Origin: Thermoanaerobaculia bacterium
GTDB lineage: Bacteria > Acidobacteriota > Thermoanaerobaculia > Multivoradales > Multivoraceae
Assembly (NCBI GenBank): GCA_963666565.1
Contig: OY762911.1
Location: 2,880,001-2,944,000, forward strand
Direction of reading: 5' to 3'
DNA length: 64,000 nt
Shown: one piece after another, positions 4,989 to 25,690 of the stretch
How the letters are laid out: every line of letters begins with the position of its first letter
Position numbering within the stretch: position 1 is the first letter of the stretch
Position numbers and translations under genes: made by a program
The notes under the pieces: generated by a model
Told to the model about the DNA's origin: nothing
Seen by the model: only the letters and a program-made list of their open reading frames with translations
Database searches by the model: none

Positions 4989-5010
4989 TCGCCGGCAAAC
5001 TTGCCGGCGA
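4989..5010. promoter_or_regulatory. Perfect palindrome TCGCCGGCAA-AC-TTGCCGGCGA, candidate operator of the BREX operon
   Basis: 10-bp arms with a 2-nt spacer, ending 5 bp upstream of the -35 box. Confidence 0.5.
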
Positions 5011-5015
5011 CACAG

Positions 5016-5044
5016 TTGACAGCCTTCCGTGGATTCACTACGAT
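5016..5044 (+). promoter_or_regulatory. Sigma70-type promoter TTGACA-N17-TACGAT driving the BREX operon
   Basis: Consensus -35 at 5016-5021, 17-nt spacer, -10 at 5039-5044; in-frame GTG at 5053. Confidence 0.7.
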
Positions 5045-5052
5045 GCCCGGTC

Positions 5053-5841
5053 GTGGCCATCGAACAGCTACGCGCCGCCCCCGTGGCGGACCTTGAACGC
5101 GCCGGATTTCGCCTCGGCGCGCGCGGCACGCACACGAGCCGCACGATCATGCTGGAAGACCTGGGCGAACTCCTCGCGGCCGTTCCAACGGATAGCGACA
5201 GGAGCGTCTACGCCCACGCCGTCGTCGAAGACAACGTGCTCGGGAAGCAGACGGCGGCTACGCGGCGGCTCAGCTTTCAGCGGCTGCGCGAGCTTTACGG
5301 CCTCGACCCGCGGATACCCCTCTTCCGGGTGCTGCGGCGTCTTTGGGAGATCGACGAGGCGGGGCGGCCTCGGCTGGCCGTGCTCACGGCCATGGCGCGG
5401 GATCCTCTGCTCACGGCCACCGCGCCGGTCGTCGTGCTGTTGTCGCCGGGCGAGGAAATGATGCGTACCACGCTCCTTGAGAAGATCCGGGCAACCGTCG
5501 ACGACCGGCTCAACGACGCCGTGCTCGACAAGGTGGCGCGCAACGCCGGCAGTTCCTGGGTCCAGGCGGGCTTCCTCAGGGGCCGCGTGCGGAAGATCCG
5601 CCGCCGGGTCGCCCCGACGCCGGGAACCGTCGCTCTCGCGCTGTGGCTCGGACGGCTGGAGGGCTACGCGGTGGCCCGGCTGCTCGACTCGCCGTGGGCG
5701 CGGGTTGCCGGCGACGGCGGTCCGGGGGAGCTGCTGCCGGTCGCGCTCCGGGCGGGCCAGCTCGGCCTCGTCCGGGCACGCGCCGCGGCCGGCGTCCTCT
5801 CCATCGACGCTTCCATTCTCGACCCGGCGGTAGCGCGATGA
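5053..5841 (+). CDS. brxA: BrxA-like BREX protein
   Basis: First gene before brxB/brxC; NVLGKQT..TRR, KVARNAGSSW.QAGFL pattern of BREX-1 leader genes. Start set at GTG 5053 because the ORF-track start lies inside the promoter. Confidence 0.65.
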   Translation: MAIEQLRAAPVADLERAGFRLGARGTHTSRTIMLEDLGELLAAVPTDSDRSVYAHAVVEDNVLGKQTAATRRLSFQRLRELYGLDPRIPLFRVLRRLWEIDEAGRPRLAVLTAMARDPLLTATAPVVVLLSPGEEMMRTTLLEKIRATVDDRLNDAVLDKVARNAGSSWVQAGFLRGRVRKIRRRVAPTPGTVALALWLGRLEGYAVARLLDSPWARVAGDGGPGELLPVALRAGQLGLVRARAAAGVLSIDASILDPAVAR

Positions 5842-6404
5842 CCCTCAGCCGCATCGACAGGCTGGCCCGGGCGTACGAACGCCACATCGGCGCGCCGTGG
5901 CAACGCACCCTCGCCGGCGCCCAGCGGGTCGTCTTCGTCGTCTACGACAAGGAGATGGAACGGGCGTTGCGCGCCAGGATCGGCCAGTTCAAGCAGGCGA
6001 CGGTGGGCGCCGGTCACGGCTGGAATCTGGTCGATTGCACCTCCTGGTTCGCGGAGTGGATGGCTCGCGACGAGTACCGCGACGCCTACTTCGAGGATCC
6101 GTCCCTGCTCGAACTGAAGCTCGAAAGCGAGTTCCGCGCCCAGTCGGCCCAGAAGCTCGCCATCGCCCTGGAGCAGGCGGGTGAGACCGACGTGGTCGCC
6201 CTGCTCGGCGTCGCGTCGCTGTACGGTTTCCTGCGCGTGTCCGACCTCATCCGCGCCGTGGAGCCGGCCGTCCGGGGCCGGCTCGTCGTCTTCTTCCCCG
6301 GCAGCAGGAACGAGAACAACTTCCGGCTGCTCGACGCGCGGGACGGCTGGAACTACCTGGCCCAGGCCATCACGCTCCACGATGAACAGGTGACCTTGCC
6401 GTGA
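5838..6404 (+). CDS. brxB: BREX protein BrxB (DUF1788)
   Basis: GVASLYGFLRVS, LVVFFPG, FRLLDARDGWNYLA; ATGA overlap with brxA. Confidence 0.85.
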   Translation: MTLSRIDRLARAYERHIGAPWQRTLAGAQRVVFVVYDKEMERALRARIGQFKQATVGAGHGWNLVDCTSWFAEWMARDEYRDAYFEDPSLLELKLESEFRAQSAQKLAIALEQAGETDVVALLGVASLYGFLRVSDLIRAVEPAVRGRLVVFFPGSRNENNFRLLDARDGWNYLAQAITLHDEQVTLP

Positions 6405-9400
6405 AGATCCACGAACTCCTCGACCGCGACCCGCGCGGCGCCCGCCTCGCGAACAACGGCCAGGCCCGTCTCGACGTGGAGGGCGGCCGATCCGAGGACG
6501 TGCTGCGCGAGGAACTCTCCACGTTCGTCTGCGACGGGCGCTTCGGTGATGCGCTGCAGCGCATCCTCGACCGCTACCTCGCGAACCTGGGCGCGGCGCG
6601 GCAGGACGCGGCCTGGGTCAGCGGGTTCTTCGGCAGCGGCAAGTCGCATTTGCTCAAGATGGCCGCGCACCTGTGGCGGAACACGAGCTTCGAGGACGGC
6701 TCGACGGCCCGCGGCGTGGCCGGGGAGTCTCTCCCCGGCGACGTGCAGGCCGCGCTGCGGGAGCTGGACACCCGGGCGACGCGCGCCGGCCGCCGCCCGG
6801 TCGCCGCAGCCGGCACTCTCCTGGGCGGCAACGACTGGGTCCGCCGCACCGTGCTCGAGATCGTCCTGCGCGCCCGCGGCTGGCCGGACCAGTACGCGCA
6901 GGCGAAGTTCTGCTTCTGGCTGCGGGACGAGGGTGCGCTGGACGCGGTGCGGGCGGCGGTCGAAGCCGGGGAAAGGGACTGGCTGCGGGAACTGAACAAC
7001 CTCTACGTCAGCCCCGTCCTCGCGGGCGCGGTGGTCGACGCGGTGCCGGGCTTCGCCGCCGACGTGAAGAACGCCATGCAGGCGTTGCGGGCGCAGTTCC
7101 CGCCGACCAGGGAGGACATCACCACGGAGCAGTTCGTCGACGCCGCCCGCCGCGCGCTCTCGGACGGCGACGAGCTTCCGCACACGGTGCTCGTGCTCGA
7201 CGAGGTCCAGCAGTACATCGGCGGCGACGAGGACCGGTCGTCGGCCATCACCGAACTCGCGGAGGCGATCCAGACCCGGTTCGACAGCCGGGTGATGCTC
7301 GTTGGCGCGGGCCAGTCGGCGCTGTCGGCCGACACGCCGCATCTGGCCAAGCTCCGCGACCGGTTCGTGATCCGGGTGGAGCTGACCGACGCCGACGTCG
7401 AGGCGGTGACGCGGCGCGTGCTGCTCAGCAAGAAGCAGAGCGCCGTTCCCGAGATCGAGAAGCTCTTCGAGACCCACGCCGGCGAGGTCGCCCGTCACCT
7501 GCGGAACACGCGCATCGGCGCCCGGCCGGAGGACGCCGGCCACCGGGTGGACGACTACCCGCTGCTCCCCGTCCGCCGCCGGTTCTGGGAGGCGTGCTTC
7601 CGGGCCGTCGATGCCGGCGGCGCGCAGAGCCAGCTTCGTTCCCAGTTGCGGATCCTGCACGACTCGCTGGACGGGCTCGCGTCGCGGGACCTCGGCGCCG
7701 CGATACCCGCGTCCGACCTCTTCGGCGCCCTCGCGCCGGACATGGTGAGCACCGGCGTTCTCCTCGGTGAACTCGACACGCGGATCAGGCGGCTCGACGA
7801 CGGGACGGACCGCGGCCGCCTGCGGCGCGACCTCTGCGGGCTGGCGTTCCTGATCGGACGGCTGCCCCGCGAGACCGCGGTCGACATGGGAGTGCGGGCC
7901 ACGCCGTCCGCCCTGGCCGACCTGCTCGTGACCGACATCACGCGGGACGCGTCGGCGTTCCGGCGCGACGTGGAGAGGGAGCTCGAGTCCCTCGCAGAGC
8001 GCGGCGAACTCCTCAAGGTGGGCGAGGAGTACCGCCTCCAGACCACGGAGGGCGCCGAGTGGGACCGCGCCTACCGCGAACAGGTCGCGGCGATGCGGCA
8101 GGACGAGGTCGAGATCGGGCGCGTCCGCAACCAGCTCTTCGGCAGGGAGGTTGAGGAGGCGGTGCGGTCTCTCCGCCTCATCCACGGCGAATCGAAGTTG
8201 CGACGCACGGTCAAGCTCCACGCCGGGGAGGAAGCGCCGGTGCCCGACGCCGAGGCCGTGGTCGTCTGGTGGCGCGACGGCTGGTCGGTTCGGCGGAACG
8301 CCGTGGAGAACGAGGCGCGGCGGGCGGGAGTCGAGGGTCCGACCCTGTTCGCCTGGCTGCCGCGCCGCAACGCGGACGAACTGCGCGAGCGGATCCTCGC
8401 CGTCGAGGCGGCGGGGCGGGTGCTCGACCTGAAGGGCAGCCCCGCCTCGCCCGAGGGGCGGGACGCGAAGGCGGGAATGGAGAGCCGGCGGGACGACGCC
8501 GTCCGCCAGCGCACCGAACTCGTCCTCGACGCGCTGCGGGCAGCGGCCGTCTACCAGGGCGGGGGCACGGAGGTCTACGGCGAGGACCTGCGCCAGCGGA
8601 TCGAGCGGGGCGCCGAGGCCTCGCTGGCGAGGCTCTTCCCGGAGTTCGACAAGGGCGACCACCGGGCCTGGGAGGTGGCGCTCCGCCGCGCCCGCGACGG
8701 CAACGACGCGCCGCTCCAGATCGTCGGTTGGGAGGGGCAGACGGCGGACCATCCGGTGGCCCGCGAAGTGCTCGCGAAAGCTGCGGCCGGCGCGCGCGGC
8801 ACCGAACTGCACCGGGCGCTCCGGGCCGCGCCGTTCGGCTGGCCGCAGGACGCGGTGGACGCCGTGCTGGTGGCGCTGCACCGGAGCGGACACCTGAGGG
8901 CCGTCCGCAACGGGGTCGACGTCGCGGTCGGCGCGCTGGACCAGGCCGGCATCAAGGCGGCGGAGTTCCGGCCCGAGAGGGTCGTGCTCACCGTGAGCGA
9001 CCGGATCGCCGTGCGCGGCCTGTTCCAGCAGGTCGGCGTCCGTGCGCGGAGCGGGGAGGAGGCGCAGTCCGCCCGGAGCTTCCTCGACCGTCTGCAGGAG
9101 CTTGCGGAGTCCGCCGGCGGCGCGGCGCCGCTGCCGCCCGTGCCCGAGACCGGCTTCATCGACGAACTCTCACGGCTTGCGGGCGCGGAACAGTTGGCCG
9201 CCATCCACGAGCGGCGCGAGAGCATCGGCGAGTCGATTGCCGCCTGGACGGCGCTGGCCGAGCGGCGGGAGGGCCGCGAACGGTTGTGGCGGCTCGCGGC
9301 GGGCCTGCGGCGGCATGCCCAGGGTCTCTCGGGCACGGACTCGCCGGAGCAGGAGTTCGAAGCGATCGAGCGGCAGCGATCGCTCCTCGCGGAGACCGAC

Positions 9401-9868
9401 CGCCTCGATCCCCTCGTGGGCCGGCTCGCCGGCGCACTGCGCGAGGAATTGACTGCGCGACGCCACAAGCTCACCGTCGCGGTGACCGGTGCCGCCGAGG
9501 CGCTGGCCGCGGACGCGACCTGGCAGCGCTTGGACCAGGGCGAGCAGGAGGAGATCCTCCGGCAGTGCCAGCTTGACCCGCCTCGCGAGACCCCGATCGC
9601 GACGCGCCAGGAGCTTCTCGCCAACCTCGACAACCGCCCGCTCGCCGCATGGCAGGCCGAGGCCGATGCCGTCCGCGAGCGCGCCTCCCGGGCGTTGGGC
9701 GAAGCGGCGACCCGGCTTGGCGCCGGTTCCGAGGACGAGCCGGCGCCGACCCGCGTCACGATCCGCCCCGTTACGCTTGCCGACGAGGTGGCCGTCCGGG
9801 ACTGGCTGCGGGAGCAGGAGGAGCGGCTGGTGGAGGCGGTGCGGAAGGGGCCGGTGGTGCTGCGGTGA
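6401..9868 (+). CDS. brxC: BREX P-loop ATPase BrxC
   Basis: EELSTFV, WVSGFFGSGKSH (Walker A), LVLDEVQQYI (Walker B), DYPLLP, PFGWPQDA; 1155 aa. Confidence 0.92.
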   Translation: MKIHELLDRDPRGARLANNGQARLDVEGGRSEDVLREELSTFVCDGRFGDALQRILDRYLANLGAARQDAAWVSGFFGSGKSHLLKMAAHLWRNTSFEDGSTARGVAGESLPGDVQAALRELDTRATRAGRRPVAAAGTLLGGNDWVRRTVLEIVLRARGWPDQYAQAKFCFWLRDEGALDAVRAAVEAGERDWLRELNNLYVSPVLAGAVVDAVPGFAADVKNAMQALRAQFPPTREDITTEQFVDAARRALSDGDELPHTVLVLDEVQQYIGGDEDRSSAITELAEAIQTRFDSRVMLVGAGQSALSADTPHLAKLRDRFVIRVELTDADVEAVTRRVLLSKKQSAVPEIEKLFETHAGEVARHLRNTRIGARPEDAGHRVDDYPLLPVRRRFWEACFRAVDAGGAQSQLRSQLRILHDSLDGLASRDLGAAIPASDLFGALAPDMVSTGVLLGELDTRIRRLDDGTDRGRLRRDLCGLAFLIGRLPRETAVDMGVRATPSALADLLVTDITRDASAFRRDVERELESLAERGELLKVGEEYRLQTTEGAEWDRAYREQVAAMRQDEVEIGRVRNQLFGREVEEAVRSLRLIHGESKLRRTVKLHAGEEAPVPDAEAVVVWWRDGWSVRRNAVENEARRAGVEGPTLFAWLPRRNADELRERILAVEAAGRVLDLKGSPASPEGRDAKAGMESRRDDAVRQRTELVLDALRAAAVYQGGGTEVYGEDLRQRIERGAEASLARLFPEFDKGDHRAWEVALRRARDGNDAPLQIVGWEGQTADHPVAREVLAKAAAGARGTELHRALRAAPFGWPQDAVDAVLVALHRSGHLRAVRNGVDVAVGALDQAGIKAAEFRPERVVLTVSDRIAVRGLFQQVGVRARSGEEAQSARSFLDRLQELAESAGGAAPLPPVPETGFIDELSRLAGAEQLAAIHERRESIGESIAAWTALAERREGRERLWRLAAGLRRHAQGLSGTDSPEQEFEAIERQRSLLAETDRLDPLVGRLAGALREELTARRHKLTVAVTGAAEALAADATWQRLDQGEQEEILRQCQLDPPRETPIATRQELLANLDNRPLAAWQAEADAVRERASRALGEAATRLGAGSEDEPAPTRVTIRPVTLADEVAVRDWLREQEERLVEAVRKGPVVLR

Positions 9869-11157
9869 GCATGTCGATAACCACAGAACAACTCGCGTCA
9901 CGCATTCGGGCTGCAAGGGAGGCAACCGGCTTGACACAGGAGGCGGTGGCTGGCGCGCTGAAGCTCTCGCGCCCCGCCGTGTCGCAGATGGAGGCCGGGA
10001 ACCGGGCCGTGTCGGGCCTCGAACTCGAGCGCCTCGGGCGCCTTTTCGGGAGGCGCATGACCGACTTCTTCGACGATGCGTTCTCTCCCGAACGAGGCGC
10101 GGCCATCGCGCTCTTCCGCGCGCATCCGATTCTGAGCAGCGACTCCGACCTACGGGACGCGGTGGGGCTGGCACTGGAGTTCGGGCGTTCCGTGGCCCAC
10201 CTTGAGGACCGGCTCCAGATCGACAGGCGCGAGGTGGTGGCGTACGGCTATGGGACCGCCGCCATGAAGAACAAGTGGGATGCCATCCAGCAGGGAGAGC
10301 GCGTGGCCGGCGCGGAGCGGAACAGGCTGGGGCTGGGCATCGAGCCGCTGCCCGATCTCGTGGATCTGTTGGAGAGGCAGGGCGTGCGCGCCGTGGCGGC
10401 GTCGATGCCTGCCAAAGTGTCCGGCCTGACCCTGGTGGACGATGCGGCGGGCATCGTCGTCGCGGTCAATGGACGGCACGGGTTCAACCGGCAGCGCTTC
10501 TCGCTGGCCCGGGAGTACGCCCATGTCCTGTTCGACCGCGACAGGCAGGCCTGCCTGAGCCGCAGGGAGGACCAGGAATCGTCGATGGAGGTGCGGGCCG
10601 ACTCCTTCGCCGCCACTTTCTTGCTTCCGGCCGACGGTGTTCGTCGCTATGTCCACTACCTCGCCAAGGGGCGCGCGAGCCGGACTCGCCGCCAAGTCTC
10701 GGACGGCCGGGACGTTCAAACCGCGGAGCGCCGACGGCCTCCCGGCAGCCAGGGGCTGCGTCTGCACGACGTGGCAATGCTCGCTCATCACTTCGGCGTC
10801 AGCCGCGTGGCGGCGCTCTACCGCCTGAACGGCCTGGGGATCCTCACCGAACGGCAGCGGGCCGCTTTGGCCGAGTGGAACGTCGGCCACGGCGAACGCC
10901 TCGCGAGCCTGCTTGGTCTTCGGAACCCCGACGCCGCCCGCCGTCGCTTGCCTCGCAAGCGTCTCGTGACCCTCGGAATCGAGGCCCTGGAGCGGGAGAT
11001 CATCTCCTACAGCAAGCTCCGCGAGTTGGCCGGACTAGTGGGCGTGAGCGAGGACGATCTGGAGGAACTCGTGGTGGCCGCAGGAATCGACCCGAGACCG
11101 CCGGTTGATGTGTCGCCGGTGGACTGGGACGTTCTGAGAAGAGGATCGGTGAGGTAG
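9865..11157 (+). CDS. XRE-family HTH fused to ImmA/IrrE-like (peptidase M78) domain; HExxH degenerate (REYAH)
   Basis: RIRAAREATGLTQEAVA..SRPAVSQMEAGNR HTH; RQRFSLAREYAHVL; EVRADSFAATFLLP; HHFGVSR. GTGA overlap with the brxC stop; alternative ATG at 9871. Confidence 0.85.
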   Translation: MSMSITTEQLASRIRAAREATGLTQEAVAGALKLSRPAVSQMEAGNRAVSGLELERLGRLFGRRMTDFFDDAFSPERGAAIALFRAHPILSSDSDLRDAVGLALEFGRSVAHLEDRLQIDRREVVAYGYGTAAMKNKWDAIQQGERVAGAERNRLGLGIEPLPDLVDLLERQGVRAVAASMPAKVSGLTLVDDAAGIVVAVNGRHGFNRQRFSLAREYAHVLFDRDRQACLSRREDQESSMEVRADSFAATFLLPADGVRRYVHYLAKGRASRTRRQVSDGRDVQTAERRRPPGSQGLRLHDVAMLAHHFGVSRVAALYRLNGLGILTERQRAALAEWNVGHGERLASLLGLRNPDAARRRLPRKRLVTLGIEALEREIISYSKLRELAGLVGVSEDDLEELVVAAGIDPRPPVDVSPVDWDVLRRGSVR

Positions 11158-13790: not shown

Positions 13791-13793
13791 CAG

Positions 13794-15596: not shown

Positions 15597-15599
15597 CCG

Positions 15600-16781
15600 A
15601 TGGCGACGATCCACACCCTACAGCTCGATGGTTTCTTGTCCTTCCCGCCGGGTTCGTCGGCGTTCGAGCTTCAGCCTCTGAACGTACTGATCGGACCGAA
15701 CGGCGCCGGCAAGTCGAACTTCATCGAGGCGTTCGAGCTTCTCGCGGCTGCGCCGGTGGACTTTGCCGCGGCAGTACGGAGTGGGGGCGGCGCGAAGGAA
15801 TGGCCGTGGAAGGGAGTGGGCGCTAGGTCCACCGCCCGCATCGAGACCGTGCTGGCTGATGGAACCCCGACTGGTCGGCCGCTTCGCCATGGCATCGAGT
15901 TCGGCTCGGTCGCCCGCCGGGCGGAGGTCCTCGACGAGGTGGTGGAGGAGACGAGGCCCTACGCGGGGAACGAGGACGTTTTCTTCTACTATCGGTTCCA
16001 ACAAGGCGAGCCAGCGATCAGCGTTCGCGAGGAAGGCGGCAAAGCGGTCCAGCGGAGCCTGAAGAGAGAGAACCTGCCTCCCGATCAGTCGGTCCTCGCT
16101 CGCTACAAGAGCGTCGACCTCTGCCCGGAAGTTGCGTGGGTCTCGGAGCGCTTCAAGGCGATTCGGACATTCCGTGAGTGGACGTTCGGCCGCTTCGCGT
16201 CGCTTCGGGAGCCGCAACGCTCCGACCTGCCGGACGACAGCCTGCTGCCGAACAACTTGAATCTCGCGCTTGTTCTGAACTACATCGGACACTCCGGCGC
16301 GACGCAACTGGAGCACGAGATGCGGCAGTTTCTCCCGCGGTTCGCACGCCTGTCCACGCGAGTCGCCGGCGGATCCGTGCAGTTCTACGTTCACGAGAAC
16401 GGATTGACCGCACCCATTCCGGCAAGCCGTCTCTCGGACGGCACGATGCGGTTCATGGCCATCCTTGTCACCTTGCTTCATCCCGACCCGCCTCCCCTTG
16501 TTTGCATCGAGGAGCCAGAGCTTGGGCTGCACCCGGACGCGGTTGTCGGGCTGGGGGACCTCCTCGTCGAGGCATCCTCGCGGATGCAGCTGGTCGTGAC
16601 GACGCACTCCGACGCTCTGGTTGCTGCTCTCTCCAACCGAGCAGACTCGGTCGTCACGTGCCAGTGGAAGGGCGGGGGAAGCGCCTTGGAGCGAGTTGAT
16701 CCGGAGCGGCTTCGCAGGTGGCTCCACGAATACACCTTGGGCGACATCTGGCGGATGGGCAAGCTGGGTGCGAACCCGTGA
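15600..16781 (+). CDS. ABC-type (AAA_21-like) ATPase
   Basis: LNVLIGPNGAGKSN, LSDGTMR signature, VCIEEPELGLHP, VTTHSD. Confidence 0.9.
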   Translation: MATIHTLQLDGFLSFPPGSSAFELQPLNVLIGPNGAGKSNFIEAFELLAAAPVDFAAAVRSGGGAKEWPWKGVGARSTARIETVLADGTPTGRPLRHGIEFGSVARRAEVLDEVVEETRPYAGNEDVFFYYRFQQGEPAISVREEGGKAVQRSLKRENLPPDQSVLARYKSVDLCPEVAWVSERFKAIRTFREWTFGRFASLREPQRSDLPDDSLLPNNLNLALVLNYIGHSGATQLEHEMRQFLPRFARLSTRVAGGSVQFYVHENGLTAPIPASRLSDGTMRFMAILVTLLHPDPPPLVCIEEPELGLHPDAVVGLGDLLVEASSRMQLVVTTHSDALVAALSNRADSVVTCQWKGGGSALERVDPERLRRWLHEYTLGDIWRMGKLGANP

Positions 16782-17395
16782 CCGACATCGAGGTCTACAT
16801 GGAAGGCGGAGGCCGCACCGCCAGTTCGAGGGCGCTGCTCCGTGAAGGGGCGGAGGAGTTTCTTGGGGAACTTCGATCCGCTGCGCGAAGCCGGGGCCTC
16901 GAACTGAGGATCGTCTGCTGCGGCGGGCGAGGCGAGGCACGAGCCGACTTCGTCGAGGCAAGGAGCGAGGGGCGGTTCGCGGCGCTCCTGCTAGTGGACT
17001 CGGAGAAGCCGGTCGAGGGCGATCCCAGAACCCACCTCGTCACTCACGACGGCTGGGGGGATCTGGAACCGGCGTCCGAGAGCGAGATTCACCTAATGGT
17101 GCAGGTGATGGAGACCTGGCTCGTCGCCGATCCTCAGGCGCTCGCGAGGCACTATGGACCTGCCTTTCGCACGGACCTTCTGCCGGCGGACCAGGACTTG
17201 GAGACGGTAGAGAAGGAGACGGTGCTCGCGACCCTCGAAGAGGCTACTGCACCGACGTCGGAGGGCCGCTACCACAAGATCCACCATGCCAGACGGCTCC
17301 TCGGCCTGATCGACTCGGAGAGGGTCCAAGCGCGCTGCCCGCATTGCAAGCGGCTCTTCGAGATGCTGACGGCCTTGATCGAGGAGGCGGCCTGA
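16778..17395 (+). CDS. DUF4276-like (TOPRIM-related) partner of the ATPase
   Basis: IEVYMEGGG, CGGR, LLVDSE, MVQVMETWLVAD, YHKIHH; GTGA overlap with the ATPase stop. Confidence 0.75.
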   Translation: MTDIEVYMEGGGRTASSRALLREGAEEFLGELRSAARSRGLELRIVCCGGRGEARADFVEARSEGRFAALLLVDSEKPVEGDPRTHLVTHDGWGDLEPASESEIHLMVQVMETWLVADPQALARHYGPAFRTDLLPADQDLETVEKETVLATLEEATAPTSEGRYHKIHHARRLLGLIDSERVQARCPHCKRLFEMLTALIEEAA

Positions 17396-17396
17396 G

Positions 17397-20300
17397 ATGA
17401 CCGGAGCCCTAACGCCCGACCTCCGCAAGCAGTTGGAGAAGGCCGTCCGCTCCGCGCGCGCCGAAGGCGAGGCCGGCACTCGCGCTGCGCTGCGGGCGCT
17501 CGCGGTGGACGGCGCCCGGCCGCACGAGTCGATGTCCGCCGACGAGCGCAAGCTGCGGCGGCGGCTTCGCGCCCACGGCCGGCAGTTGGGCGACGTACGG
17601 GACCGGGAGAGCGGAGCGCAGGAGATCGGGCGGCTCGTCCACGAGGTCGCCTACGAGCACTGGCACCGGATGCTGTTCGCTCGGTTCCTGGCGGAGAACG
17701 GGTTGCTGGTCGAGCCCCGGTCCCGGGTTTCGGTATCGCTGGACGAGTGCGCTGAACTGGCGCGCGAAGCGGGCGCCACGGACGGCTGGCAGGTCGCCGA
17801 GAGGTTCGCTGCCGAGATGTTGCCCCGGATCTTCCGGCCAGACGACCCGGCCCTCGCGGTGACGCTGGCGCCGGAGACGCGGCAGAGGTTGGAGCGGCTG
17901 GTGGAAGATCTGCCAGACAGCGTGTTCACGGCGAGCGACGCGCTTGGCTGGACGTACCAGTTCTGGCAGGCGGACCGGAAGGAGGAGGTAAACCAGTCGG
18001 GCGCGAAGATCGGCGCGGACGAACTTCCCGCGGTGACGCAGTTGTTCACCGAGAACTACATGGTCCAGTTTCTGTTCCACAACACCATCGGCGCGTGGCG
18101 GGCCGGCAAGCACCTGGAGCAGCGGCCCGAACTGGCCGAGCGTGCCGCGAGCGAAGGGGAACTCGGGGCCGCCGTGCACATCGAACCGCGAGGCGGCCTC
18201 GACGGCTACGACTTCGACTACCTGCGGTTCGTCCGCGAACCGGCCGGCGACGACGGCGAGGATGTGGCCCGGACCTCGACTGGACCTTGGCGGCCAGCCG
18301 GCGGTGCCTTCCGCCGCTGGCCCGACCGGGCGGCGGACCTTCGGGTGCTGGACCCATGCTGCGGAAGCGGCCACTTCCTCATCGAGGGCTTGGAACTCCT
18401 GGTGCGGCTGCGCATGGAGGAGGAGGGCCTCGGGGTCGAGCACGCCGTCGGGGCCGTGTTGAGGGACAACCTGTTCGGACTGGAGATCGACCAGCGCTGC
18501 ACGCAGATCGCGGCTTTCAATCTTGCACTGGCCGCGTGGAAGATGGTGGGCCGCCCGATCGACTTGCCGCCGCCACGGATTGCCTGCTCCGGTCTCGCCG
18601 TGAGCGCTTCGAAGGACGACTGGGTGAGGCTTGCCGAGGGCGATCAACGTCTGGAAGGCACGCTCGACCGGCTCCACGACCTCTTCAAGCAGGGGCCCAT
18701 TCTCGGTTCGTTGATCGACCCGGCGGGGGTCGGCGAGGAACTGTTCCAGGCCGACTTCGCGACGGCGGAGCGCGCTCTGAGCCGGGCGGTCGCCCAGGAA
18801 GACGCCGGCGAGGAAGAGCGGGAGCGCGCGGTGGCGGCGCAGGGGATGTCGCGCGCCGCCGGACTGCTGGCCGGCGAGTACGACCTCGTGATCACCAACG
18901 TGCCCTATCTGGCGCGTCGCAAGCAAGCCGCGAGCCTGCAGGACTTCGCGCTCAAGAGTCACCCGGACGCTAAGGCCGACTTGGCGACCATTTTCGTGTC
19001 GAGGATTCTCCGGTGGCTCGGGACCGGCGGCGTTCAGGCGGTCGTCGCGCCGCAGAACTGGCTGTTTTTGACCAGCTATAGGAAGCTGCGCGAGCGGCTG
19101 CTCGCCGAACGGACGTGGCGATTCGTGGCGCGGCTGGGACCCGGCGCGTTCGAGACGATAGGCGGGCACGTCGTGAACGTCGCCATGGCCGTGCTGTCGG
19201 CCAAGAGGCCGGACGAAAACTGGCGCATGGCCGGCATCGACGTGTCGGCACCCCGCGGCGAGAAGCCGATTCCGGCGCGGAAGAAGGCGGAGTTGCTGCG
19301 GACTCGTGGGAGAAAGCCGGTCTCACAACTTCCGCAGGCTCGGCAGCGACGCAATCCAGATGCCGTGGTCAGGCTACTCGACTACGGAGAAGCGGTTCAG
19401 GTTCTTCTATCTGAGCATGCTCAGGGTCTTGCCGGCATACTGAACGGCGATTCTCTCCGTTTTCGTCGCATGGTGTGGGAGTTCCATCCCGTTCCGCCGG
19501 AGTGGGTCTTGCAGCAGACAAGCGTCGACGAACCGAGCTTCTTTGGCGGACATTCAGGAGTCATCTACTTCGATGAGGAGAACGGCCATCTCCGCGAGGA
19601 TGCTCTCGTTCGACGGGAGAGGCTTCACGACTCGGACCGCCGTGGCAACGCGGCATGGGGTCGGAACGGAATCGGCATCAGCCAGATGACGACGTTGCCT
19701 GCGACGCTGTACTCGGGGGCCAAGTTCGACTCCAACGTGGCGGTCATTCTCCCTAGAGAGGGGGCACTCGTTGAGTCAATCTGGTGCTACTGCTCCGCTC
19801 CCGAGTACGCGCGGGCCGTGCGGGAGATCGACCAAAAGCTGAATGTAACCAACGCCACGTTGGTGAAGGTTCCATTCGATCGAGGTCACTGGAGGAAGGT
19901 CGCCGCCGCCCGGTACCCCAACGGCCTCCCCGAGCCGTTCTCCGACGACCCGACTCAATGGCTTTTCCACGGCCACCCGTGCGGCTCGGTGGTCTGGGAC
20001 GAGGAGACGAAGTGGACCGCCCACGGTCCGCTCCGTGCAGACGCTTCCGTGCTCCACGTCGCCGTCGCGCGGCTCCTCGGCTACCGCTGGCCAGCGGAGC
20101 TCGACCCGGACATGCGGCTGGCGGCAGAGTCCCGAGAATGGGTCGAGCGGTGCCGGGAACTGCACCACTTCGCCGACGAGGACGGCATCGTCTGCCTTCG
20201 GGCAGCGGCTGGCGAGCTGCCGGCGGCCGACCGGCTGCGCTCCCTGCTCGCGGCCTCCTACGGCGAGGCGTGGTCCGACGGGAAGGAGGGCCAGCTTCTT

Positions 20301-21035
20301 GGTGCGGCCGGAAACGGCAAACGGCCGCCCAGGTCTCTGGACGAGTGGCTCCGCGACCGGTTCTTCGCCGAGCACTGCAGGCTGTTCCACAACCGGCCCT
20401 TCGTCTGGCACGTCTGGGACGGCCTCAAGAACGGCTTCCACGCGTTGGTGAACTGCCATCGCCTGTGCGGGCCGGATGGCGAAGGCCGGCGAACGCTGGA
20501 AGCGCTCGCGTACCGGCATCTGGGCGAGTGGATAGCTCGTCAGCGCGCGGCGCAGGGTCAGGATCGGGAGGGGGCGGACGCCCGGCTCGCCGCCGCCCTG
20601 GACCTTCAGCGGCAGTTGGAACTCATCCTGAAGGGTGAACCGCCTTACGACCTCTTCATCCGCTGGCGCCCGCTCCACGAGCAGCCGGTCGGCTGGGCGC
20701 CGAACCTCGACGACGGCGTGAGGCTCAACATCCGCCCCTTCATGCGGGCGGAACTCCAGTCCGGCGGCCGCAAGGGCGCCGGCATCCTCCGCGTCAGGCC
20801 GAACATCACCTGGAAGAAGGACCGCGGCAAGGAACCAGGGAGCCTTCGCCCTAGGGATGACTTCCCCTGGTTCTACTCCTCCGTTGGCCAAGGTACCGAG
20901 GTAGACCGCACGGACTACGCGGCGTCGCTGGAGGCGGATTTTGATGGCAACCGCTGGAACGACCTTCACTACTCACGGGCCGTCAAGGAGGCTGCCCGGA
21001 CGCGTGGACGGAGCGAGACGAGGGCGTCGGCGTGA
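17397..21035 (+). CDS. pglX: BREX DNA adenine methyltransferase PglX (BrxX)
   Basis: PAVTQLFTE.YMV, VLDPCCGSGHF (SAM motif), LFGLEID, VITNVPY (NPPY-like), HNRPFVWH, PNLDDGVRLNIRP. Confidence 0.92.
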   Translation: MTGALTPDLRKQLEKAVRSARAEGEAGTRAALRALAVDGARPHESMSADERKLRRRLRAHGRQLGDVRDRESGAQEIGRLVHEVAYEHWHRMLFARFLAENGLLVEPRSRVSVSLDECAELAREAGATDGWQVAERFAAEMLPRIFRPDDPALAVTLAPETRQRLERLVEDLPDSVFTASDALGWTYQFWQADRKEEVNQSGAKIGADELPAVTQLFTENYMVQFLFHNTIGAWRAGKHLEQRPELAERAASEGELGAAVHIEPRGGLDGYDFDYLRFVREPAGDDGEDVARTSTGPWRPAGGAFRRWPDRAADLRVLDPCCGSGHFLIEGLELLVRLRMEEEGLGVEHAVGAVLRDNLFGLEIDQRCTQIAAFNLALAAWKMVGRPIDLPPPRIACSGLAVSASKDDWVRLAEGDQRLEGTLDRLHDLFKQGPILGSLIDPAGVGEELFQADFATAERALSRAVAQEDAGEEERERAVAAQGMSRAAGLLAGEYDLVITNVPYLARRKQAASLQDFALKSHPDAKADLATIFVSRILRWLGTGGVQAVVAPQNWLFLTSYRKLRERLLAERTWRFVARLGPGAFETIGGHVVNVAMAVLSAKRPDENWRMAGIDVSAPRGEKPIPARKKAELLRTRGRKPVSQLPQARQRRNPDAVVRLLDYGEAVQVLLSEHAQGLAGILNGDSLRFRRMVWEFHPVPPEWVLQQTSVDEPSFFGGHSGVIYFDEENGHLREDALVRRERLHDSDRRGNAAWGRNGIGISQMTTLPATLYSGAKFDSNVAVILPREGALVESIWCYCSAPEYARAVREIDQKLNVTNATLVKVPFDRGHWRKVAAARYPNGLPEPFSDDPTQWLFHGHPCGSVVWDEETKWTAHGPLRADASVLHVAVARLLGYRWPAELDPDMRLAAESREWVERCRELHHFADEDGIVCLRAAAGELPAADRLRSLLAASYGEAWSDGKEGQLLGAAGNGKRPPRSLDEWLRDRFFAEHCRLFHNRPFVWHVWDGLKNGFHALVNCHRLCGPDGEGRRTLEALAYRHLGEWIARQRAAQGQDREGADARLAAALDLQRQLELILKGEPPYDLFIRWRPLHEQPVGWAPNLDDGVRLNIRPFMRAELQSGGRKGAGILRVRPNITWKKDRGKEPGSLRPRDDFPWFYSSVGQGTEVDRTDYAASLEADFDGNRWNDLHYSRAVKEAARTRGRSETRASA

Positions 21036-21257
21036 CGCCTACAGAGAATCGAGGGGCATTCAGGGCGTTGACCTGTTTACGAGCTGCTCGACGAGCGCGA
21101 GTTGCGCCTGACGATCTTCGCCGCTGGACCGTCGGAGGATTGAGGACTTTGCTGCGCGCCACGATTGCGCCGTTCGGACTCAGGGCGGGTCTCGTTGCCG
21201 GCGCCGATATGGACACCGTCGATCCCCAGGACAGGGCTTGAGGATTAGGAGAGAGCG

Positions 21258-23618
21258 TTGGCTTCCACCGCATCGCACACCGCTGAGGTCGCACCCGCCG
21301 CCGACACGATCCTCGGCCGCCTGATCGCCGCCCTCCGCGACAAGGCTGGCCCGCTGGACGGCCACGAACGGCCGGCCGCCGTCCTCTGGCCCGACCCGGA
21401 CGAAGAATGGCGTCCTCTGGTCGCCACCCTCCGCGAAAGGCTGCGTGAGTTCCTGACCCTTGGCGTTTACGACGAGGCGGCCCGGTGCGGCCCGGCCATC
21501 TGGCTGCGCGCGGCCGTCGACGGCGAGCTTGGCGGGGCGGCACCGACGAACGGGCGGCCGCCCATCCTGTACCTTCCCGCCGTCTCCCGCCAGCAGCTTC
21601 GCGCCGGCGACGACTGCCCGGACAATCTGAAGCCCCTGGTCGAACTTCTCTATCGGGGCGCCGTCTGGGCTCACCCGAACGGGCGGGAGTGGACGGTGCG
21701 GGCCTTCCTGAGTTCCCCGAAGTCGCTCGGCCTGGGCGTCCCGGACGATCGCGGTACGAGGCAGGCCATGCTGCAGGCTCTGCCGGAGGTCGCGGTGGCG
21801 CCGCTCGACCGGCTGGGAGGCAGGCGGCTCGACGCGGACTTCTTCCACCGCGTGTTGAGCCCCGACCCGCTGCGCGACGTGTTGCAGTGGCTGGGCGAAG
21901 GCGACGCAATGCGGTCCCGTCTCGGTCCGGAGCGGTGGGGCGCCTTCCGCAGCCGCTGCCGGGACGAACTCGACTTCGACCCGCAGACGGCGCCCGACGT
22001 AGCGGCCGGCGAGCGGCTGGGTACCGGCGAGGGCGAATGGGCGCGGGTATGGGAACGGTTCCTGGAAGCGCCGGAGAGTTACGAGTGGGTGGCCGACGTT
22101 CTGCTGCGGAGTCGACCGGCGGGCGTTCTTCCTTTCGAGTCGGAACGGTGGCCGGACCTGAATGCCGAGGCCGAGGAGGTTCTCCGGCTCCAACTCGAAG
22201 AACTGCGCGACCTGAGCCACGACGACGCCTGCCGGGATTTGCTCCAGGCGGAGGAGGAGCATGGCCGTCGCCGCTACTGGGTCTGGGCGGGTCTCGGGCT
22301 CTCGCCGCTGGCCGTCGTCTTGGCGCCTCTGGCGCGTCTGGCCGCGGAAGCGCGAACGACGCTGGCCGGCGGCACGCCCGGCGAGGTCGCCCGCGGCTAC
22401 GTCGAGCACGGATGGGCGGCCGATGCCGCGGCCCGCGAGGCCCTGGCCGCCGCCGGTGCCGCGGACCGGGAACTCGTCGCGGCGGTCGTCCGGCGCGTGC
22501 TGCTGCCGTGGCTCGAGGGCGGCGCCCAAGCCTTCCAGGCCGCCGCCGAGCGGGAGGCCCTGCCGGCGCGCGGCGGGCAGCCGCCGGTCGAAGCGGAGGA
22601 AGGAACGTGCCTGCTGTTCGTGGACGGTCTGCGCTACGAGCTGGCGCGCACGTTGGCTGATCTGCTCGAGGGGCGAGGCTTCGGCACGGACCTGCGGCAT
22701 CGCTGGGCGGCGCTGCCGACGCTGACGGCCACGGGCAAGCCGGCGGCGACGCCGGTGGCTGCCGATGTGACGGGGACGGAGCTCGGTGCCGACTTGACGC
22801 CGGCGTTCGCCGCGACCGGCCGGCGCGCCGACGCCGAGGCGCTCCGAACCGCCATCGAGGCGCGCGGCTACCAGGTGCTGGGCACCGGAACGCTCGACGC
22901 GCCGCTCGGCAGTCCCGCTCGCGGCTGGGCGGAAGAGGGCGCCATCGACAAGCTCGGGCACGAACTCGCCGCGGCCGACTTCGCCCGCAAGCTGCGCGAC
23001 GAGCTGGAGGCGCTCGCCGACCGCGTCGCGCGCCTCCTCGAAGTCGGCTGGAAGAGGGTCCGGCTCGTGACCGACCACGGCTGGCTGCAGATGCCCGGCG
23101 GGTTGCCCAAGGTCGACTTGCCTCAGCATCTCACCGTCAGCCGGGGCGCGCGCTGCGCCGCGGTGGCTGGCGCCTCGCAGCCAGACGCGCCGATGCCGCC
23201 GTGGCACTGGAACGCGAACGAGTCGTTCGCCTCGGCGCGGGGCGCCGGCGCCTTCCGCCGGTCGGTGGAGTACGCCCACGGGGGGCTCAGCATCCAGGAG
23301 TGCCTGGTTCCCGATCTGACGGTGCGTACGGCGGCTTCGACCGCCCCGAGCGCGCGGATCCGCACCGTCACCTGGCGCGGCTTCCGTTGCCTCGTCGAGG
23401 CCACGGCGGAAGCCGGAACGGTCGCCGCCGACCTGCGCCTGGCGGCGGAGCTGAGCCAGTCGGTCGCGGGGGCCGGCAAGCCCGTGGAGGCGGACGGCTC
23501 GGTCAGCCTGCTGCTCGCCGACGACGACCACGAACAATCGCGGCTGGTTCTCGTCCTTGTCGATGAGGAGGGTCGGATTCTCGACCGCCGCGAGACCGCT
23601 GTGGGAGAGGACTCGTGA
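21258..23618 (+). CDS. pglZ: BREX PglZ-domain phosphatase/phosphodiesterase
   Basis: LFVDGLRYE, LPTLTATGK, IDKLGH, VTDHGW, YAHGGLSIQECLVP. Confidence 0.92.
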   Translation: MASTASHTAEVAPAADTILGRLIAALRDKAGPLDGHERPAAVLWPDPDEEWRPLVATLRERLREFLTLGVYDEAARCGPAIWLRAAVDGELGGAAPTNGRPPILYLPAVSRQQLRAGDDCPDNLKPLVELLYRGAVWAHPNGREWTVRAFLSSPKSLGLGVPDDRGTRQAMLQALPEVAVAPLDRLGGRRLDADFFHRVLSPDPLRDVLQWLGEGDAMRSRLGPERWGAFRSRCRDELDFDPQTAPDVAAGERLGTGEGEWARVWERFLEAPESYEWVADVLLRSRPAGVLPFESERWPDLNAEAEEVLRLQLEELRDLSHDDACRDLLQAEEEHGRRRYWVWAGLGLSPLAVVLAPLARLAAEARTTLAGGTPGEVARGYVEHGWAADAAAREALAAAGAADRELVAAVVRRVLLPWLEGGAQAFQAAAEREALPARGGQPPVEAEEGTCLLFVDGLRYELARTLADLLEGRGFGTDLRHRWAALPTLTATGKPAATPVAADVTGTELGADLTPAFAATGRRADAEALRTAIEARGYQVLGTGTLDAPLGSPARGWAEEGAIDKLGHELAAADFARKLRDELEALADRVARLLEVGWKRVRLVTDHGWLQMPGGLPKVDLPQHLTVSRGARCAAVAGASQPDAPMPPWHWNANESFASARGAGAFRRSVEYAHGGLSIQECLVPDLTVRTAASTAPSARIRTVTWRGFRCLVEATAEAGTVAADLRLAAELSQSVAGAGKPVEADGSVSLLLADDDHEQSRLVLVLVDEEGRILDRRETAVGEDS

Positions 23619-25690
23619 ACTCGCAGACTTCCCGGAACCTGGAGATGGACCGCCTGGACGAACTCGCCGCGGAGGCGTTCCCCGGCTATCTGGTGCGCAA
23701 GGACCTGGTGCGGCGCTACGCCCGGCAGTACCCGGTGCCCACCTACGTGGTGGAGTTCCTCCTGGGCCGCTACTGCGCGAGCGTGGACGAGGACGAGATC
23801 GAGGAGGGGCTGGTCGTCGTCAAGAGGCAGCTCGAAGGGCGGACCGTGCGCCCCAGCGACCAGGAGGTCTTCAAGTCGCGCGCCCGGGAGAACGGCTCGG
23901 TCAAGCTGATCGACATCGTCCGCGCCCGGCTCGACGCGCGCAACGACCGCTACGCCGCCGAACTGCCGAGCTTGGGCCTGCGCGGCGTCGACGTGGGCGA
24001 CGCCATCGTCACCGAGAACCAGCGGATGCTGACGGACGGCTTCTACGCCGAGGTGACGCTGGAGTACGACGCGGTGGCGGCACTGGAGGAGCGGGCCAAC
24101 CCGTTCCGCATCGCGTCGCTCCGGCCGATTCAGATGTCGGACCCGCGGGTGCTCGACGTGTTCGCGCGGGGCCGCCGGCAGTTCACGACGGACGAGTGGC
24201 GGGACTTCCTGATCCGCTCCGTGGGCCTCGAACCGGCGGCGCTGGACGAGCGGGCGAAGCGGGTCGCCCTGCTGCGGATGGTCCCCTTCGTGGAGCGGAA
24301 CTACGACCTGGTGGAACTCGGCCCGCGCGGCACCGGCAAGAGCCACATCTACCAGCAGATCTCGCCGTACTCGCACCTTCTCTCGGGCGGCAAGGCGACG
24401 GTGGCGAAGATGTTCGTCAACATGGCGAACGGCCAGCGCGGCCTGGTCTGCCAGTACGACGTCGTCTGCTTCGACGAGGTCTCCGGCGTCTCCTTCGATC
24501 AGAAGGACGGCGTCAACATCATGAAGGGCTACATGGCGTCCGGCGAGTTCAGCCGGGGCAAGGAGAGCATCCGCGCCGACGGCGGCATCGTCATGGTGGG
24601 CAACTTCGATGTCGACGTGGAGCAGCAACAGCGCATCGGCCACCTGCTCTCGCCCCTGCCCAGGGAGATGCGGGACGACACGGCATTCCACGACCGCATC
24701 CACGCCTACGCGCCGGGCTGGGACTTCCCGAAGCTGAACCCGGAGGACCACCTGACGGATCACTTCGGCCTCGTGACCGACTTCCTGAGCGAGTGCTGGA
24801 ACCAGTCCCGGCAGTCGACGCGGCTGGACGCGCTGCAGAACCGGGTCTTCTGGGGCGGCGCGCTCAGCGGCCGCGACATCGAGGCCGTGAACAAGACCTG
24901 TTCCGGTCTGCTGAAGCTCCTGTACCCCGACCGGGAGATGCCCATCGAGGAGGACGACCTGGAGTGGATCGTCCGGCTCGCCCTGGAGTCGCGCCGGCGC
25001 GTGAAGGAGCAGCAGAAGCGCTGCCTCAGGAGCGAGTTCGGCAACACCCACTTTTCCTTCACGCTGGGCGTGGACGGGGTGGAGCAATTCGTCGCCACGC
25101 CGGAACTCCACAGCGACGAGGCCATCGACAGCGACCCGCTGCCGCCCGGACAGGTCTGGGCCATCGGTCCCGGCGCCGGCGAGACGGGCGCCGGCCTGTA
25201 CCGCGTCGAGGTCGCGCTGGGGCCGGGAAGCGGCGCGAAGATCGTCAACTATCCCGTGCCCCCGGCCTTCCGCGAGAGCGTCAGGGTCGGCGAGCAGAAC
25301 CTGTACCGCGCCGCGAGGGAGCTTGTGGGACATCGCGACCCGCGCGGCTTCGAGTACTCGGTGCAACTCCAGTCCTTCGATGCCGACAAGTCCGGCGTCG
25401 GCCTCGGCATGCCGGTGCTCGCCGCCTGCGTCGGCGCGCTGCTCGACCGCGGAACCCGTGGCGGCGCGATCGTCGTGGGCCCGCTCAACCTCGGCGGCAG
25501 TCTGGACATGCTCCATCACCCCGTCTCGATCGCGGAACTGGCCGTCGACAAGCAGGCGACGACCCTGCTCATGCCGGTCAGCGCGAGGAAGGCGCTGAAC
25601 GAGATGGCGGACGAGCTGTGGACGAAGGTGAACGTCGAGTACTACAGCGACCCGGTGGATGGGGTGTTCAAGGCGTTGCTGCCTCAATGA
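23615..25690 (+). CDS. brxL: BREX Lon-like AAA+ protein BrxL
   Basis: VPTYVVEFLLGRYC, VELGPRGTGKSH, DVVCFDEV, KGYMASGEFSRG, AFHDRIH, degenerate Lon C-domain. Confidence 0.93.
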   Translation: MNSQTSRNLEMDRLDELAAEAFPGYLVRKDLVRRYARQYPVPTYVVEFLLGRYCASVDEDEIEEGLVVVKRQLEGRTVRPSDQEVFKSRARENGSVKLIDIVRARLDARNDRYAAELPSLGLRGVDVGDAIVTENQRMLTDGFYAEVTLEYDAVAALEERANPFRIASLRPIQMSDPRVLDVFARGRRQFTTDEWRDFLIRSVGLEPAALDERAKRVALLRMVPFVERNYDLVELGPRGTGKSHIYQQISPYSHLLSGGKATVAKMFVNMANGQRGLVCQYDVVCFDEVSGVSFDQKDGVNIMKGYMASGEFSRGKESIRADGGIVMVGNFDVDVEQQQRIGHLLSPLPREMRDDTAFHDRIHAYAPGWDFPKLNPEDHLTDHFGLVTDFLSECWNQSRQSTRLDALQNRVFWGGALSGRDIEAVNKTCSGLLKLLYPDREMPIEEDDLEWIVRLALESRRRVKEQQKRCLRSEFGNTHFSFTLGVDGVEQFVATPELHSDEAIDSDPLPPGQVWAIGPGAGETGAGLYRVEVALGPGSGAKIVNYPVPPAFRESVRVGEQNLYRAARELVGHRDPRGFEYSVQLQSFDADKSGVGLGMPVLAACVGALLDRGTRGGAIVVGPLNLGGSLDMLHHPVSIAELAVDKQATTLLMPVSARKALNEMADELWTKVNVEYYSDPVDGVFKALLPQ

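Follow-up and report, generated by a model that had tools for sequence, protein, structure and literature searches.

Within a window of 64,000 nucleotides (nt) from the genome of a Thermoanaerobaculia bacterium (Acidobacteriota), whose assembly is a single contig of 4.79 Mb, we analysed a type 1 bacteriophage exclusion (BREX) locus that contains a reverse transcriptase (RT) gene and a nitrilase gene, nit, between brxC and pglX. The explanation that we favour, and regard as likely, is that this type 1 BREX occupies a conserved site and that its brxC/pglX and pglX/pglZ junctions are cargo bays for swappable, self-contained defence cassettes. Such cassettes would be gained, lost and swapped by recombination at both bays. 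The first bay of the window would hold three separable modules, namely an XRE-M78 regulator, the RT-nitrilase pair (RT-nit) and HEC-01, which consists of an ABC ATPase and a DUF4276 protein, and the outcome would be a layered but mechanistically independent defence.

Probable cargo exchange in the BREX loci of one genus

We identified genes by PADLOC and Pfam profile matches, and read junctions directly off the sequence. Eleven genes lie on the plus strand in the order brxA-brxB-brxC-xre-RT-nit-abc-duf4276-pglX-pglZ-brxL, so that the content, order and strand given in an earlier note on this DNA, which was made from the sequence alone, are borne out. The six core genes of type 1 BREX are all on one strand and in their canonical order, and their profile matches, like those of the two HEC-01 genes, are strong and mostly full length.

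The brxC-pglX slot could be read in 19 loci, which comprise the window and L001-L004, L029, L030, L032-L036 and L047-L053 from congeners; the sequence of L025 stops within brxC, and that of L029 within the slot. The BREX loci are syntenic, with an upstream cytochrome c gene and a promoter region common to the congeners. RT and nitrilase genes are found in five of the 19 slots, and two more (L032 and L033) contain only a 3′ remnant of the nitrilase gene, corresponding approximately to residues 491-596. An XRE-M78 gene is present in 12 slots. The ABC and DUF4276 genes occur together in eight, in addition to which L032 has the ABC gene alone, L003 a degraded version and L004 a stub of 91 amino acids (aa). 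Five slots carry a gene encoding a PDC-S70-like protein followed by two unknown genes, and four carry TIR with 8xMP. None of these modules is found in the remaining three (L030, L034 and L035), where L030 and L035 have only an open reading frame (ORF) of 73 codons. The order of the modules is constant: XRE, the middle cassette or cassettes, HEC-01 and then pglX.

Over its first 690 aa, the BrxC protein of L004, which has RT cargo, shares 97.2% identity with its counterparts in the S70-bearing loci L029 and L047. The four intact RTs of the genus, on the other hand, are only 67-74% identical to one another. By these comparisons, the BREX core and its cargo appear to be uncoupled. A 5′ stub of the S70 gene (residues 1-50) adjoins RT in L002, nitrilase remnants are found in the S70-bearing loci L032 and L033, and 3′ stubs of xre precede RT in L004 and L001 (see below). 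These reciprocal gene remnants show repeated replacement of cassettes. Since all five occurrences are in congeners at one syntenic site, the RT-bearing BREX loci would most simply reflect one acquisition. The genus can thus be regarded as a natural allele series, with 19 readable alleles of one BREX site and with gene stubs as footprints of exchange.

The earlier note had called the RT-nitrilase module integral to BREX, and wired between brxC and pglX. In its strongest form, this idea makes RT-nit an integrated second arm of BREX, i.e. an abortive infection (Abi) guard that fires when anti-BREX proteins disable PglX or BrxC. There is precedent for such a guard, as the PARIS system embedded in a Salmonella BREX senses Ocr (PMC11341690, PMC11464382), and a survey from 2026 makes the case that embedded effectors act as backups of BREX (PMC12839542). 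The junctions around the module are operonic, and the five RT copies of the genus are without exception in the slot; however, these are five occurrences at one syntenic congener site and probably represent one event. The description as integral is not supported by the comparison of alleles: 14 of the 19 readable slots have no RT, including alleles whose BrxC is 84-97% identical, and BrxC alleles with 97% identity carry other cargo. Nor did we find the arrangement recurring between brxC and pglX in unrelated genomes, its occurrences being congeners at a syntenic site, and the 14 loci with more distant homologues are all outside BREX (see below). Furthermore, the candidate for a PARIS-like anti-restriction sensor in this slot is HEC-01 and not the RT, and HEC-01 is the commoner cargo (eight slots as opposed to five). 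We consider an integrated guard to be quite unlikely.

The second proposed bay is the interval between pglX and pglZ. This interval is 222 nt in the window, as compared to 1.25-7.6 kb in all 14 other loci in which both genes are visible. Where our queries matched, the congener intervals contain genes of one or both of two kinds, namely Schlafen/HATPase_c_4 and Ppl-like ABC. Directly downstream of pglX, the window retains what appears to be a 3′ remnant of a Schlafen/HATPase_c_4 gene (21039..21140, plus strand), which consists of 34 codons with one internal stop and has 73.5% identity (tblastn) to residues 395-428 of the L030 protein. This remnant apparently marks a lost cassette, and the pglX-pglZ interval is then a second bay that has been emptied in the window.

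Several other properties of the slots can be added. In L029, L032, L033, L047 and L050, the XRE gene is followed by genes for the PDC-S70-like protein (about 170 aa) and for proteins of about 340 and 400-510 aa, and neither of these two partners has a Pfam or PADLOC match. The three-gene S70 cassette is a candidate for an uncharacterised defence module that is an alternative to RT-nit. The 73-codon ORF, whose product has a hydrophobic C-terminus, is located directly upstream of pglX in L030 (5614-5835), L035 and L052, and is absent from the window. In L048, the match of pglX (8853-10666) to the window PglX is limited to residues 5-129 and 749-1210, which suggests an internal deletion of the methyltransferase core. 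GC content at third codon positions (GC3) is 0.71 for RT, 0.74 for nit, 0.79 for abc and 0.80 for duf4276, and ranges from 0.84 to 0.95 in the BREX core genes. We considered and rejected a mobile-element origin of the cargo, as direct repeats flanking the cargo were no better than chance-like matches. Integrase and transposase families were also absent from the Pfam and PADLOC matches of the window genes scanned.

The RT-nitrilase module, its relatives and HEC-01

The RT gene (11157..13790, plus strand) encodes an RT of the class 3 UG/Abi type with the catalytic motif RFADDM at residues 347-352. The motif is intact; among 45 sequences F348 and D350 are invariant and A349 is nearly so. The protein matches RVT_1 (2.3e-5) and RT_UG6 (6.7e-21, 72.5 bits), where the latter match is confined to the RT core and is best over profile positions 171-357 of 925. 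A structural model (pLDDT 89.9, pTM 0.93) has an RT fold. Foldseek comparison of this model to the PDB yielded generic RTs only, led by a group II intron RT (8e-7) and followed by DRT9, AbiA and DRT4, with TMq values of at most 0.28. The DRT1 structure 9yfd was not among these matches, in a PDB copy that extends to 2026-04-08 and may not include 9yfd. Similarly, a protein-cluster search with the RT found generic RT clusters only, and the C-terminal half of the protein (approximately residues 400-877) was assigned no fold or family match.

The nit gene (13794..15596, plus strand), located 3 nt downstream, encodes an RT-associated nitrilase (C-N hydrolase) of 600 aa, including an N-terminal extension of 275 aa. 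Its nitrilase core matches the PADLOC model RTasNitrilase (5.3e-35, 119 bits). Conservation across 25 sequences is at least 95% for E328, K403 and C459, the last of which aligns with the catalytic residue C1116 of DRT1. These three residues form a candidate catalytic triad, with E328 and K403 as its presumptive further members.

According to Mestre et al. 2022, association with a nitrilase defines the class 3 UG/Abi RTs (PMC9226505). The window RT has this association, since nit is adjacent and fused homologues exist. For the window RT and seven distant relatives, the best PADLOC matches are always RT_UG6, RTasNitrilase, RT_UG5-nitrilase and Drt1a, and these matches are partial, with 40-120 bits. 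In none of the eight does the UG6 profile match over its full length, including its C-terminal kinase-like domain. The DnaG-type primase that is the partner of UG6 (cluster 192) was found neither among the Pfam matches of the window genes nor among the best 25 families from 65 flank ORFs of distant RT-nit loci, and the window contains no transmembrane partner of RT-nit. With regard to DRT1/UG1, 9yfd is matched by the nitrilase core (6e-6) and, when a profile is used, by the RT palm (4.6e-7), and not over its whole length. On these matches, RT-nit is a putative split class 3 UG/Abi system of DRT1/UG5/UG6-like character that belongs to an unnamed subgroup. The profile matches thus support what the earlier note had proposed, i.e. 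a type 1 BREX with a DRT1-like RT-nitrilase defence module.

DRT1 is the source of our mechanistic analogy for RT-nit (PMC13275509), and DRT11, also known as UG5-large, requires the RT and the nitrilase alone (PMC13436386). By analogy to these systems, RT-nit would synthesise protein-primed, untemplated DNA that controls the nitrilase as effector, leading to aborted infection, and we infer that it shares this class 3 chemistry. A non-coding RNA template was considered but is not supported, as positions 4000-27500 contain no Rfam match at the gathering threshold and there is no intergenic room for such an RNA; these two findings are consistent with untemplated, protein-primed synthesis. The fused homologues argue that the RT and the nitrilase work together.

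These relatives also show where the module is usually found. Of the 42 genomes of the genus, five have the RT and 17 have BrxC, and all five RT copies lie between brxC and pglX. In a sample of 401 genomes drawn evenly across the phylum, the RT was found in only two, one being the window's own genome and the other a partial match on a short contig. Our genome collection yielded four RT-bearing loci, which are from metagenome-assembled genomes of Thermoanaerobaculia or Acidobacteria, one labelled Candidatus Multivorans, and are congeners of the window. More distant relatives were obtained by scanning metagenomes with a profile made from 37 homologues, which gave 14 loci whose identity is 24-55%. 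Downstream sequence is available for 11 of these loci; in every one of them the RT is followed by the nitrilase, and in six the two form a single fused ORF. With the BREX and cargo proteins of the window as queries, tblastn found BREX genes in none of the 14 loci. The flanks of the distant loci contain other defence genes, including NsnA, MkoA, HmaC, GmrSD and methylases, among the best 25 of 147 PADLOC families. Among the 120 homologues listed, 45 exceed 1350 aa. An exhaustive HMMER search found 127 cluster representatives at E ≤ 1e-30, and among the best 150 representatives 54 have at least 1250 aa and 19 have 800-960 aa.

RT-nit thus appears to be a system in its own right, in most cases fused and in most cases located outside BREX. 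The earlier note had stated that a predominance of RT homologues outside BREX would refute an integral module, and this is largely what we observed, in 14 of 14 metagenome loci; the genus itself departs from the pattern, with five of five copies in the slot. Mestre et al. 2022 regarded the defence prediction for UG6 as inconclusive (PMC9226505). The occurrence of the UG6/UG5-like RT-nit family inside BREX and, for distant members, in other defence islands lends this family guilt-by-association support for a role in defence.

Several observations weigh against parts of the explanation that we favour. At the level of chemistry, sequence comparison does not place the RT profile nearer to the RT of DRT1 than to group II intron RTs, and none of the named UG groups matches the RT from end to end. 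For these reasons, DRT1-type chemistry is an extrapolation. At the level of independence from BREX, the window query found no RT copy elsewhere in the genomes of the genus, so that some dependence on BREX is possible, and the fact that four diverged species have kept RT-nit points to selection for its presence there. The flank families of distant loci are the best 25 of 147, so that a divergent BREX gene in those flanks is possible, and the contexts of the RT homologues P0002-P0008, which are 65-76% identical, lie outside the comparison.

One copy of the module differs from the others. The RT in G024 (G024:C2:3292-5982; loci L003 and L031) has 11 in-frame stops in its C-terminal two thirds, and its nitrilase also has many stops. 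This copy may be a pseudogene, or the stops may be errors of long-read assembly; the adjoining BREX genes look intact.

The third module of the bay is HEC-01, in which HEC stands for Hma-embedded candidate. HEC-01A (15600..16781, plus strand) is an ABC ATPase of the AAA_21/OLD type (PADLOC 1.8e-140; Pfam AAA_21 4.1e-35) with the Walker A sequence GPNGAGKS. HEC-01B (16778..17395, plus strand) is a DUF4276 protein of the Toprim superfamily (PADLOC 1.9e-60; Pfam DUF4276 8.2e-16). The two profiles are matched almost end to end (positions 4-391 of 393 for HEC-01A and 3-200 of 202 for HEC-01B), and the genes overlap by GTGA, all of which identifies the pair as HEC-01. We know of no experimentally established trigger of HEC-01. 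The ATPase also has an AriA-type match (2.1e-33), but the pair is not PARIS itself, since its partner protein is DUF4276 instead of DUF4435. Because DUF4276 has been described as a Toprim-superfamily domain (PMC12065111), HEC-01 can be said by analogy to have a PARIS-like sensor-nuclease architecture, with an ABC ATPase alongside a Toprim-like partner.

The XRE-M78 regulator and transcription of the cargo

The genes of the locus follow each other closely. All on the plus strand, the core genes are brxA (5053..5841, with an ORF open from 5029; PADLOC BrxA 1.5e-79), brxB (5838..6404; PADLOC BrxB 2.8e-69, Pfam BrxB), brxC (6401..9868; PADLOC BrxC-PglY, E 0, residues 1-1154, full length), the methyltransferase gene pglX (17397..21035; PADLOC PglX, E 0, full length), pglZ (21258..23618; PADLOC PglZ 2.4e-247, full length) and brxL (23615..25690; PADLOC BrxL 7e-280). 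PglX contains an N6-adenine methyltransferase domain (Pfam Eco57I, N6_Mtase and MmeI_Mtase), and BrxL contains a Lon-like ATPase (Pfam BrxL_ATPase 3.2e-126, together with BrxL_N). The junctions are an ATGA overlap for brxA/brxB and GTGA overlaps for brxB/brxC, abc/DUF4276 and pglZ/brxL, as well as for brxC/xre if xre starts at 9865. The stop of xre and the start of RT (TAG/GTG) have one base in common; 3 nt separate RT from nit and nit from abc, 1 nt separates DUF4276 from pglX, and 222 nt separate pglX from pglZ. From brxA to pglX, this agrees exactly with the overlaps and gaps of at most 3 nt listed in the earlier note, except that we refined the starts of xre and brxA.

A single sigma-70-like promoter (5016..5044, plus strand) precedes brxA, as previously claimed. 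It consists of TTGACA (5016-5021), a spacer of 17 nt and TACGAT (5039-5044), with 10 of 12 matches, and is the sole sigma-70-like match in 20 kb (4400-24399); as shuffled sequence is expected to give 0.5 ± 0.6 such matches, the count taken by itself is weak evidence. Congener BREX loci have kept both the position and the sequence of this promoter. The start of brxA is most likely GTG 5053, because this column is ATG or GTG in all aligned congeners; the alternative, GTG 5029, falls within the promoter-like element. Since the ATG/GTG start column is only 8 nt past the -10 hexamer, we suggest that the brxA mRNA is leaderless or nearly so. A perfect inverted repeat with arms of 10 bp, TCGCCGGCAA-AC-TTGCCGGCGA (4989..5010), abuts the -35 hexamer, and 12 of the 14 congener loci that were aligned have kept it. 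The repeat may serve as an operator, to which the neighbouring Phd/YefM-like protein would perhaps bind, or form the terminal hairpin of the upstream gene.

The xre gene (9871..11157, plus strand; alternative start GTG 9865) encodes an RmrA-like protein with an XRE helix-turn-helix (HTH) domain and an M78 peptidase domain of the ImmA/IrrE type. RmrA models in PADLOC match it with values down to 2.6e-26, and capP and capH models and Pfam Peptidase_M78 match as well. Its start is most likely ATG 9871, 2 nt past the brxC stop, rather than GTG 9865: the brxC TGA is followed by GC and then by ATG TCG ATA ACC, which gives the same XRE N-terminus as in L047. Both the HTH and M78 domains are present, but the zinc motif reads REYAH in the window (CGG at 10510-10512), whereas it is HEYAH in 10 of 10 congeners. 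The window protein thus lacks the intact HExxH of RosmerTA- or ImmA-type regulators, a change predicted to remove one zinc ligand of the M78 motif.

The promoter region of xre also differs. In seven congener loci (L002, L029, L032, L033, L047, L048 and L050), brxC and xre are separated by a spacer of 125-165 nt that contains TTGACG-N8-GTWCGATWANCGTAC; this count was made by regular expression, and three further rows duplicate three of these places in shorter form. A looser variant of the motif was read by eye in the L053 spacer. The motif is a near-palindrome between a -35-like hexamer and a TACnnT -10-like hexamer, as in an autoregulated XRE promoter, which makes it a putative operator. The window is without this spacer (9866-9873), L052 has lost it too, and the motif occurs neither in the window nor anywhere else in the host genome. 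Since congeners keep an internal promoter and operator that the window has deleted, the tight single-promoter wiring of the window appears to be a local, derived state that arose partly through recent deletion. The tight brxC-xre junction is therefore no sign of an integral module. The XRE gate is presumably defunct in this genome.

Because the internal promoter is gone and the junctions are at most 3 nt, the cargo and pglX would be transcribed together with brxABC by read-through from the brxA promoter. The proposal in the earlier note that the cargo is co-expressed with BREX accordingly stands in the form that the two are very probably co-transcribed in the window genome. Tight junctions and one promoter do not alone show functional integration, and functional cross-talk between RT-nit and BREX is possible.

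It is conceivable that the XRE-M78 protein and RT-nit form a RosmerTA-like pair, in which XRE restrains a toxic RT-nit until a phage signal activates the peptidase, and for which BREX is a mere landing site. The matches to RmrA, capP and capH models fit such a pair, as does the overlap between the stop codon of xre and the start codon of RT in the window; however, XRE homologues also precede other cassettes, namely the S70 module, TIR with 8xMP and HEC-01, and no xre is found beside the 14 distant RT-nit loci. The 3′ stubs of xre that precede RT in L004 and L001 make the xre/RT junction look ancestral for the RT lineage, while at the same time L004 retains RT-nit with xre only as a stub. The palindromic putative operator in the congener xre promoter would suit autoregulation of such a pair, but the window XRE has REYAH and no operator, and yet its RT and nit are intact. 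We regard this pairing as unlikely.

The stubs themselves are located just before RT. In L001 (approximately 9900-10000), a copy of 25 nt from the 3′ end of brxC is found together with the xre 3′ stub, and in L004 the xre 3′ stub is at 9916-10000. Both appear to be footprints of recombination between BREX cargo alleles.

The damaged regulator and its deleted promoter could also mean that the cargo of the window is a decaying relic that no longer defends, whether expressed or not. Gene stubs are common in the slots, and the G024 copy of RT-nit, with its 11 in-frame stops, could be an example of such decay. The window ORFs for RT, nit, ABC and DUF4276, however, are full length when compared to their homologues, and FADD, the E-K-C residues and the ABC Walker A have been kept. 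A relic is thus highly improbable.

More speculatively, although we would only tentatively propose it, the brxC-pglX slot could be a regulator-gated effector bay. Here, the XRE-M78 switch would control the downstream cassettes (RT-nit, TIR with 8xMP, the S70-like trio and HEC-01) and probably pglX-pglZ-brxL, RT-nit would be an unclassified class 3 lineage whose defence role is first indicated here, and the window would be a natural ungated mutant. If this were true, the Abi cassettes of the window would be hard-wired to constitutive BREX transcription. In either case, gated and ungated alleles with a putative XRE operator provide testable material on the silencing of embedded Abi modules.

The flanks of the island contain two further genes. 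Directly upstream of the BREX promoter is a gene resembling Phd/YefM antitoxins (4588..4977, plus strand; Pfam PF02604, 1.1e-8). Its true start is probably internal, because the Pfam match spans residues 50-91. It is an orphan, with no toxin gene adjoining, and is kept upstream of BREX in several congeners. Directly 3′ of brxL, an AbiJ-like gene (25967..26923, plus strand; Pfam AbiJ_NTD3 2.6e-54 and Abi_C 1.9e-23; GC 0.59, GC3 0.67) closes the island and is followed by minus-strand genes of housekeeping type, which encode a carboxylesterase and an M20 peptidase. A pseudogene that we had suspected at 27.0-28.9 kb was rejected, as it is the ordinary minus-strand carboxylesterase gene.

Comparison with known systems

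The locus is of a known kind, namely BREX with embedded defence cargo, for which we did not find class 3-like RT-nitrilase cargo described in the literature searched. The survey of 2026 (PMC12839542, Nucleic Acids Research) reports embedded effectors within the core BREX operon and flanked by BREX genes, among them OLD-ABC and TOPRIM pairs in at least 1242 taxa, and Schlafen, histidine-kinase-like and wHTH proteins in at least 1017 taxa. Both kinds, OLD-ABC/TOPRIM and Schlafen, occur in our congener loci. The terms ‘reverse transcriptase’, ‘nitrilase’ and ‘DUF4276’ are absent from the main text of that survey, whose supplements might list RT cargo. BREX with RT-nitrilase cargo was likewise not found described elsewhere in the literature searched, where the supplements of PMC12839542 and PMC9226505 might list RT cargo or contexts of UG6. 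One text match to BREX and nitrilase (PMC9716671) was rejected as irrelevant, since it concerns a metabolic nitrilase.

With regard to RT-nit, the closest comparison is to the class 3 RTs, i.e. DRT1/UG1 (PDB 9yfd), DRT11/UG5-large, UG5-small and UG6, which likewise combine an RT with a C-N hydrolase. Both split and fused versions occur among them, as they do in the RT-nit family. The two proteins of RT-nit have a combined length of about 1470 aa, as compared to about 1000 aa for UG5-large and 1200-1300 aa for UG1. DRT1/UG1 is one polypeptide of that size with a priming site at Ser402, whereas RT-nit is split into two genes.

The regulator resembles RmrA of RosmerTA, CapH/CapP of CBASS and ImmR/ImmA, XRE and M78 regulators in which, as in the window XRE, an HTH domain is joined to an M78 peptidase. 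In contrast to ImmR/ImmA-type regulators, the first His of HExxH is missing in the window copy, as are its promoter and operator, and unlike RosmerTA, the window has no dedicated toxin of the RmrT type that we could identify. HEC-01, whose closest counterparts also include Mad3/Mad4 of MADS, shares the layout of an ABC ATPase with a Toprim-like effector with PARIS, except that AriB of PARIS is a DUF4435 protein and the effector of HEC-01 is a DUF4276 protein.

At the level of the whole locus, Escherichia fergusonii pEFER has an island of BREX with BrxU, and in Salmonella Typhimurium D23580 PARIS (ariA/ariB) is embedded in a type 1 BREX island (PMC11341690). The BREX of Salmonella D23580 resembles that of the window in containing a second self-contained system inside the cluster, and in both cases this includes a pair of an ABC ATPase with a Toprim-type protein, which is HEC-01 here. 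We assume that PARIS in Salmonella also lies between brxC and pglX. The window differs from the Salmonella locus in that its slot holds three modules, one of them an RT-nitrilase, in that the host belongs to the Acidobacteriota, and in that the contents of the slot vary among congeners.

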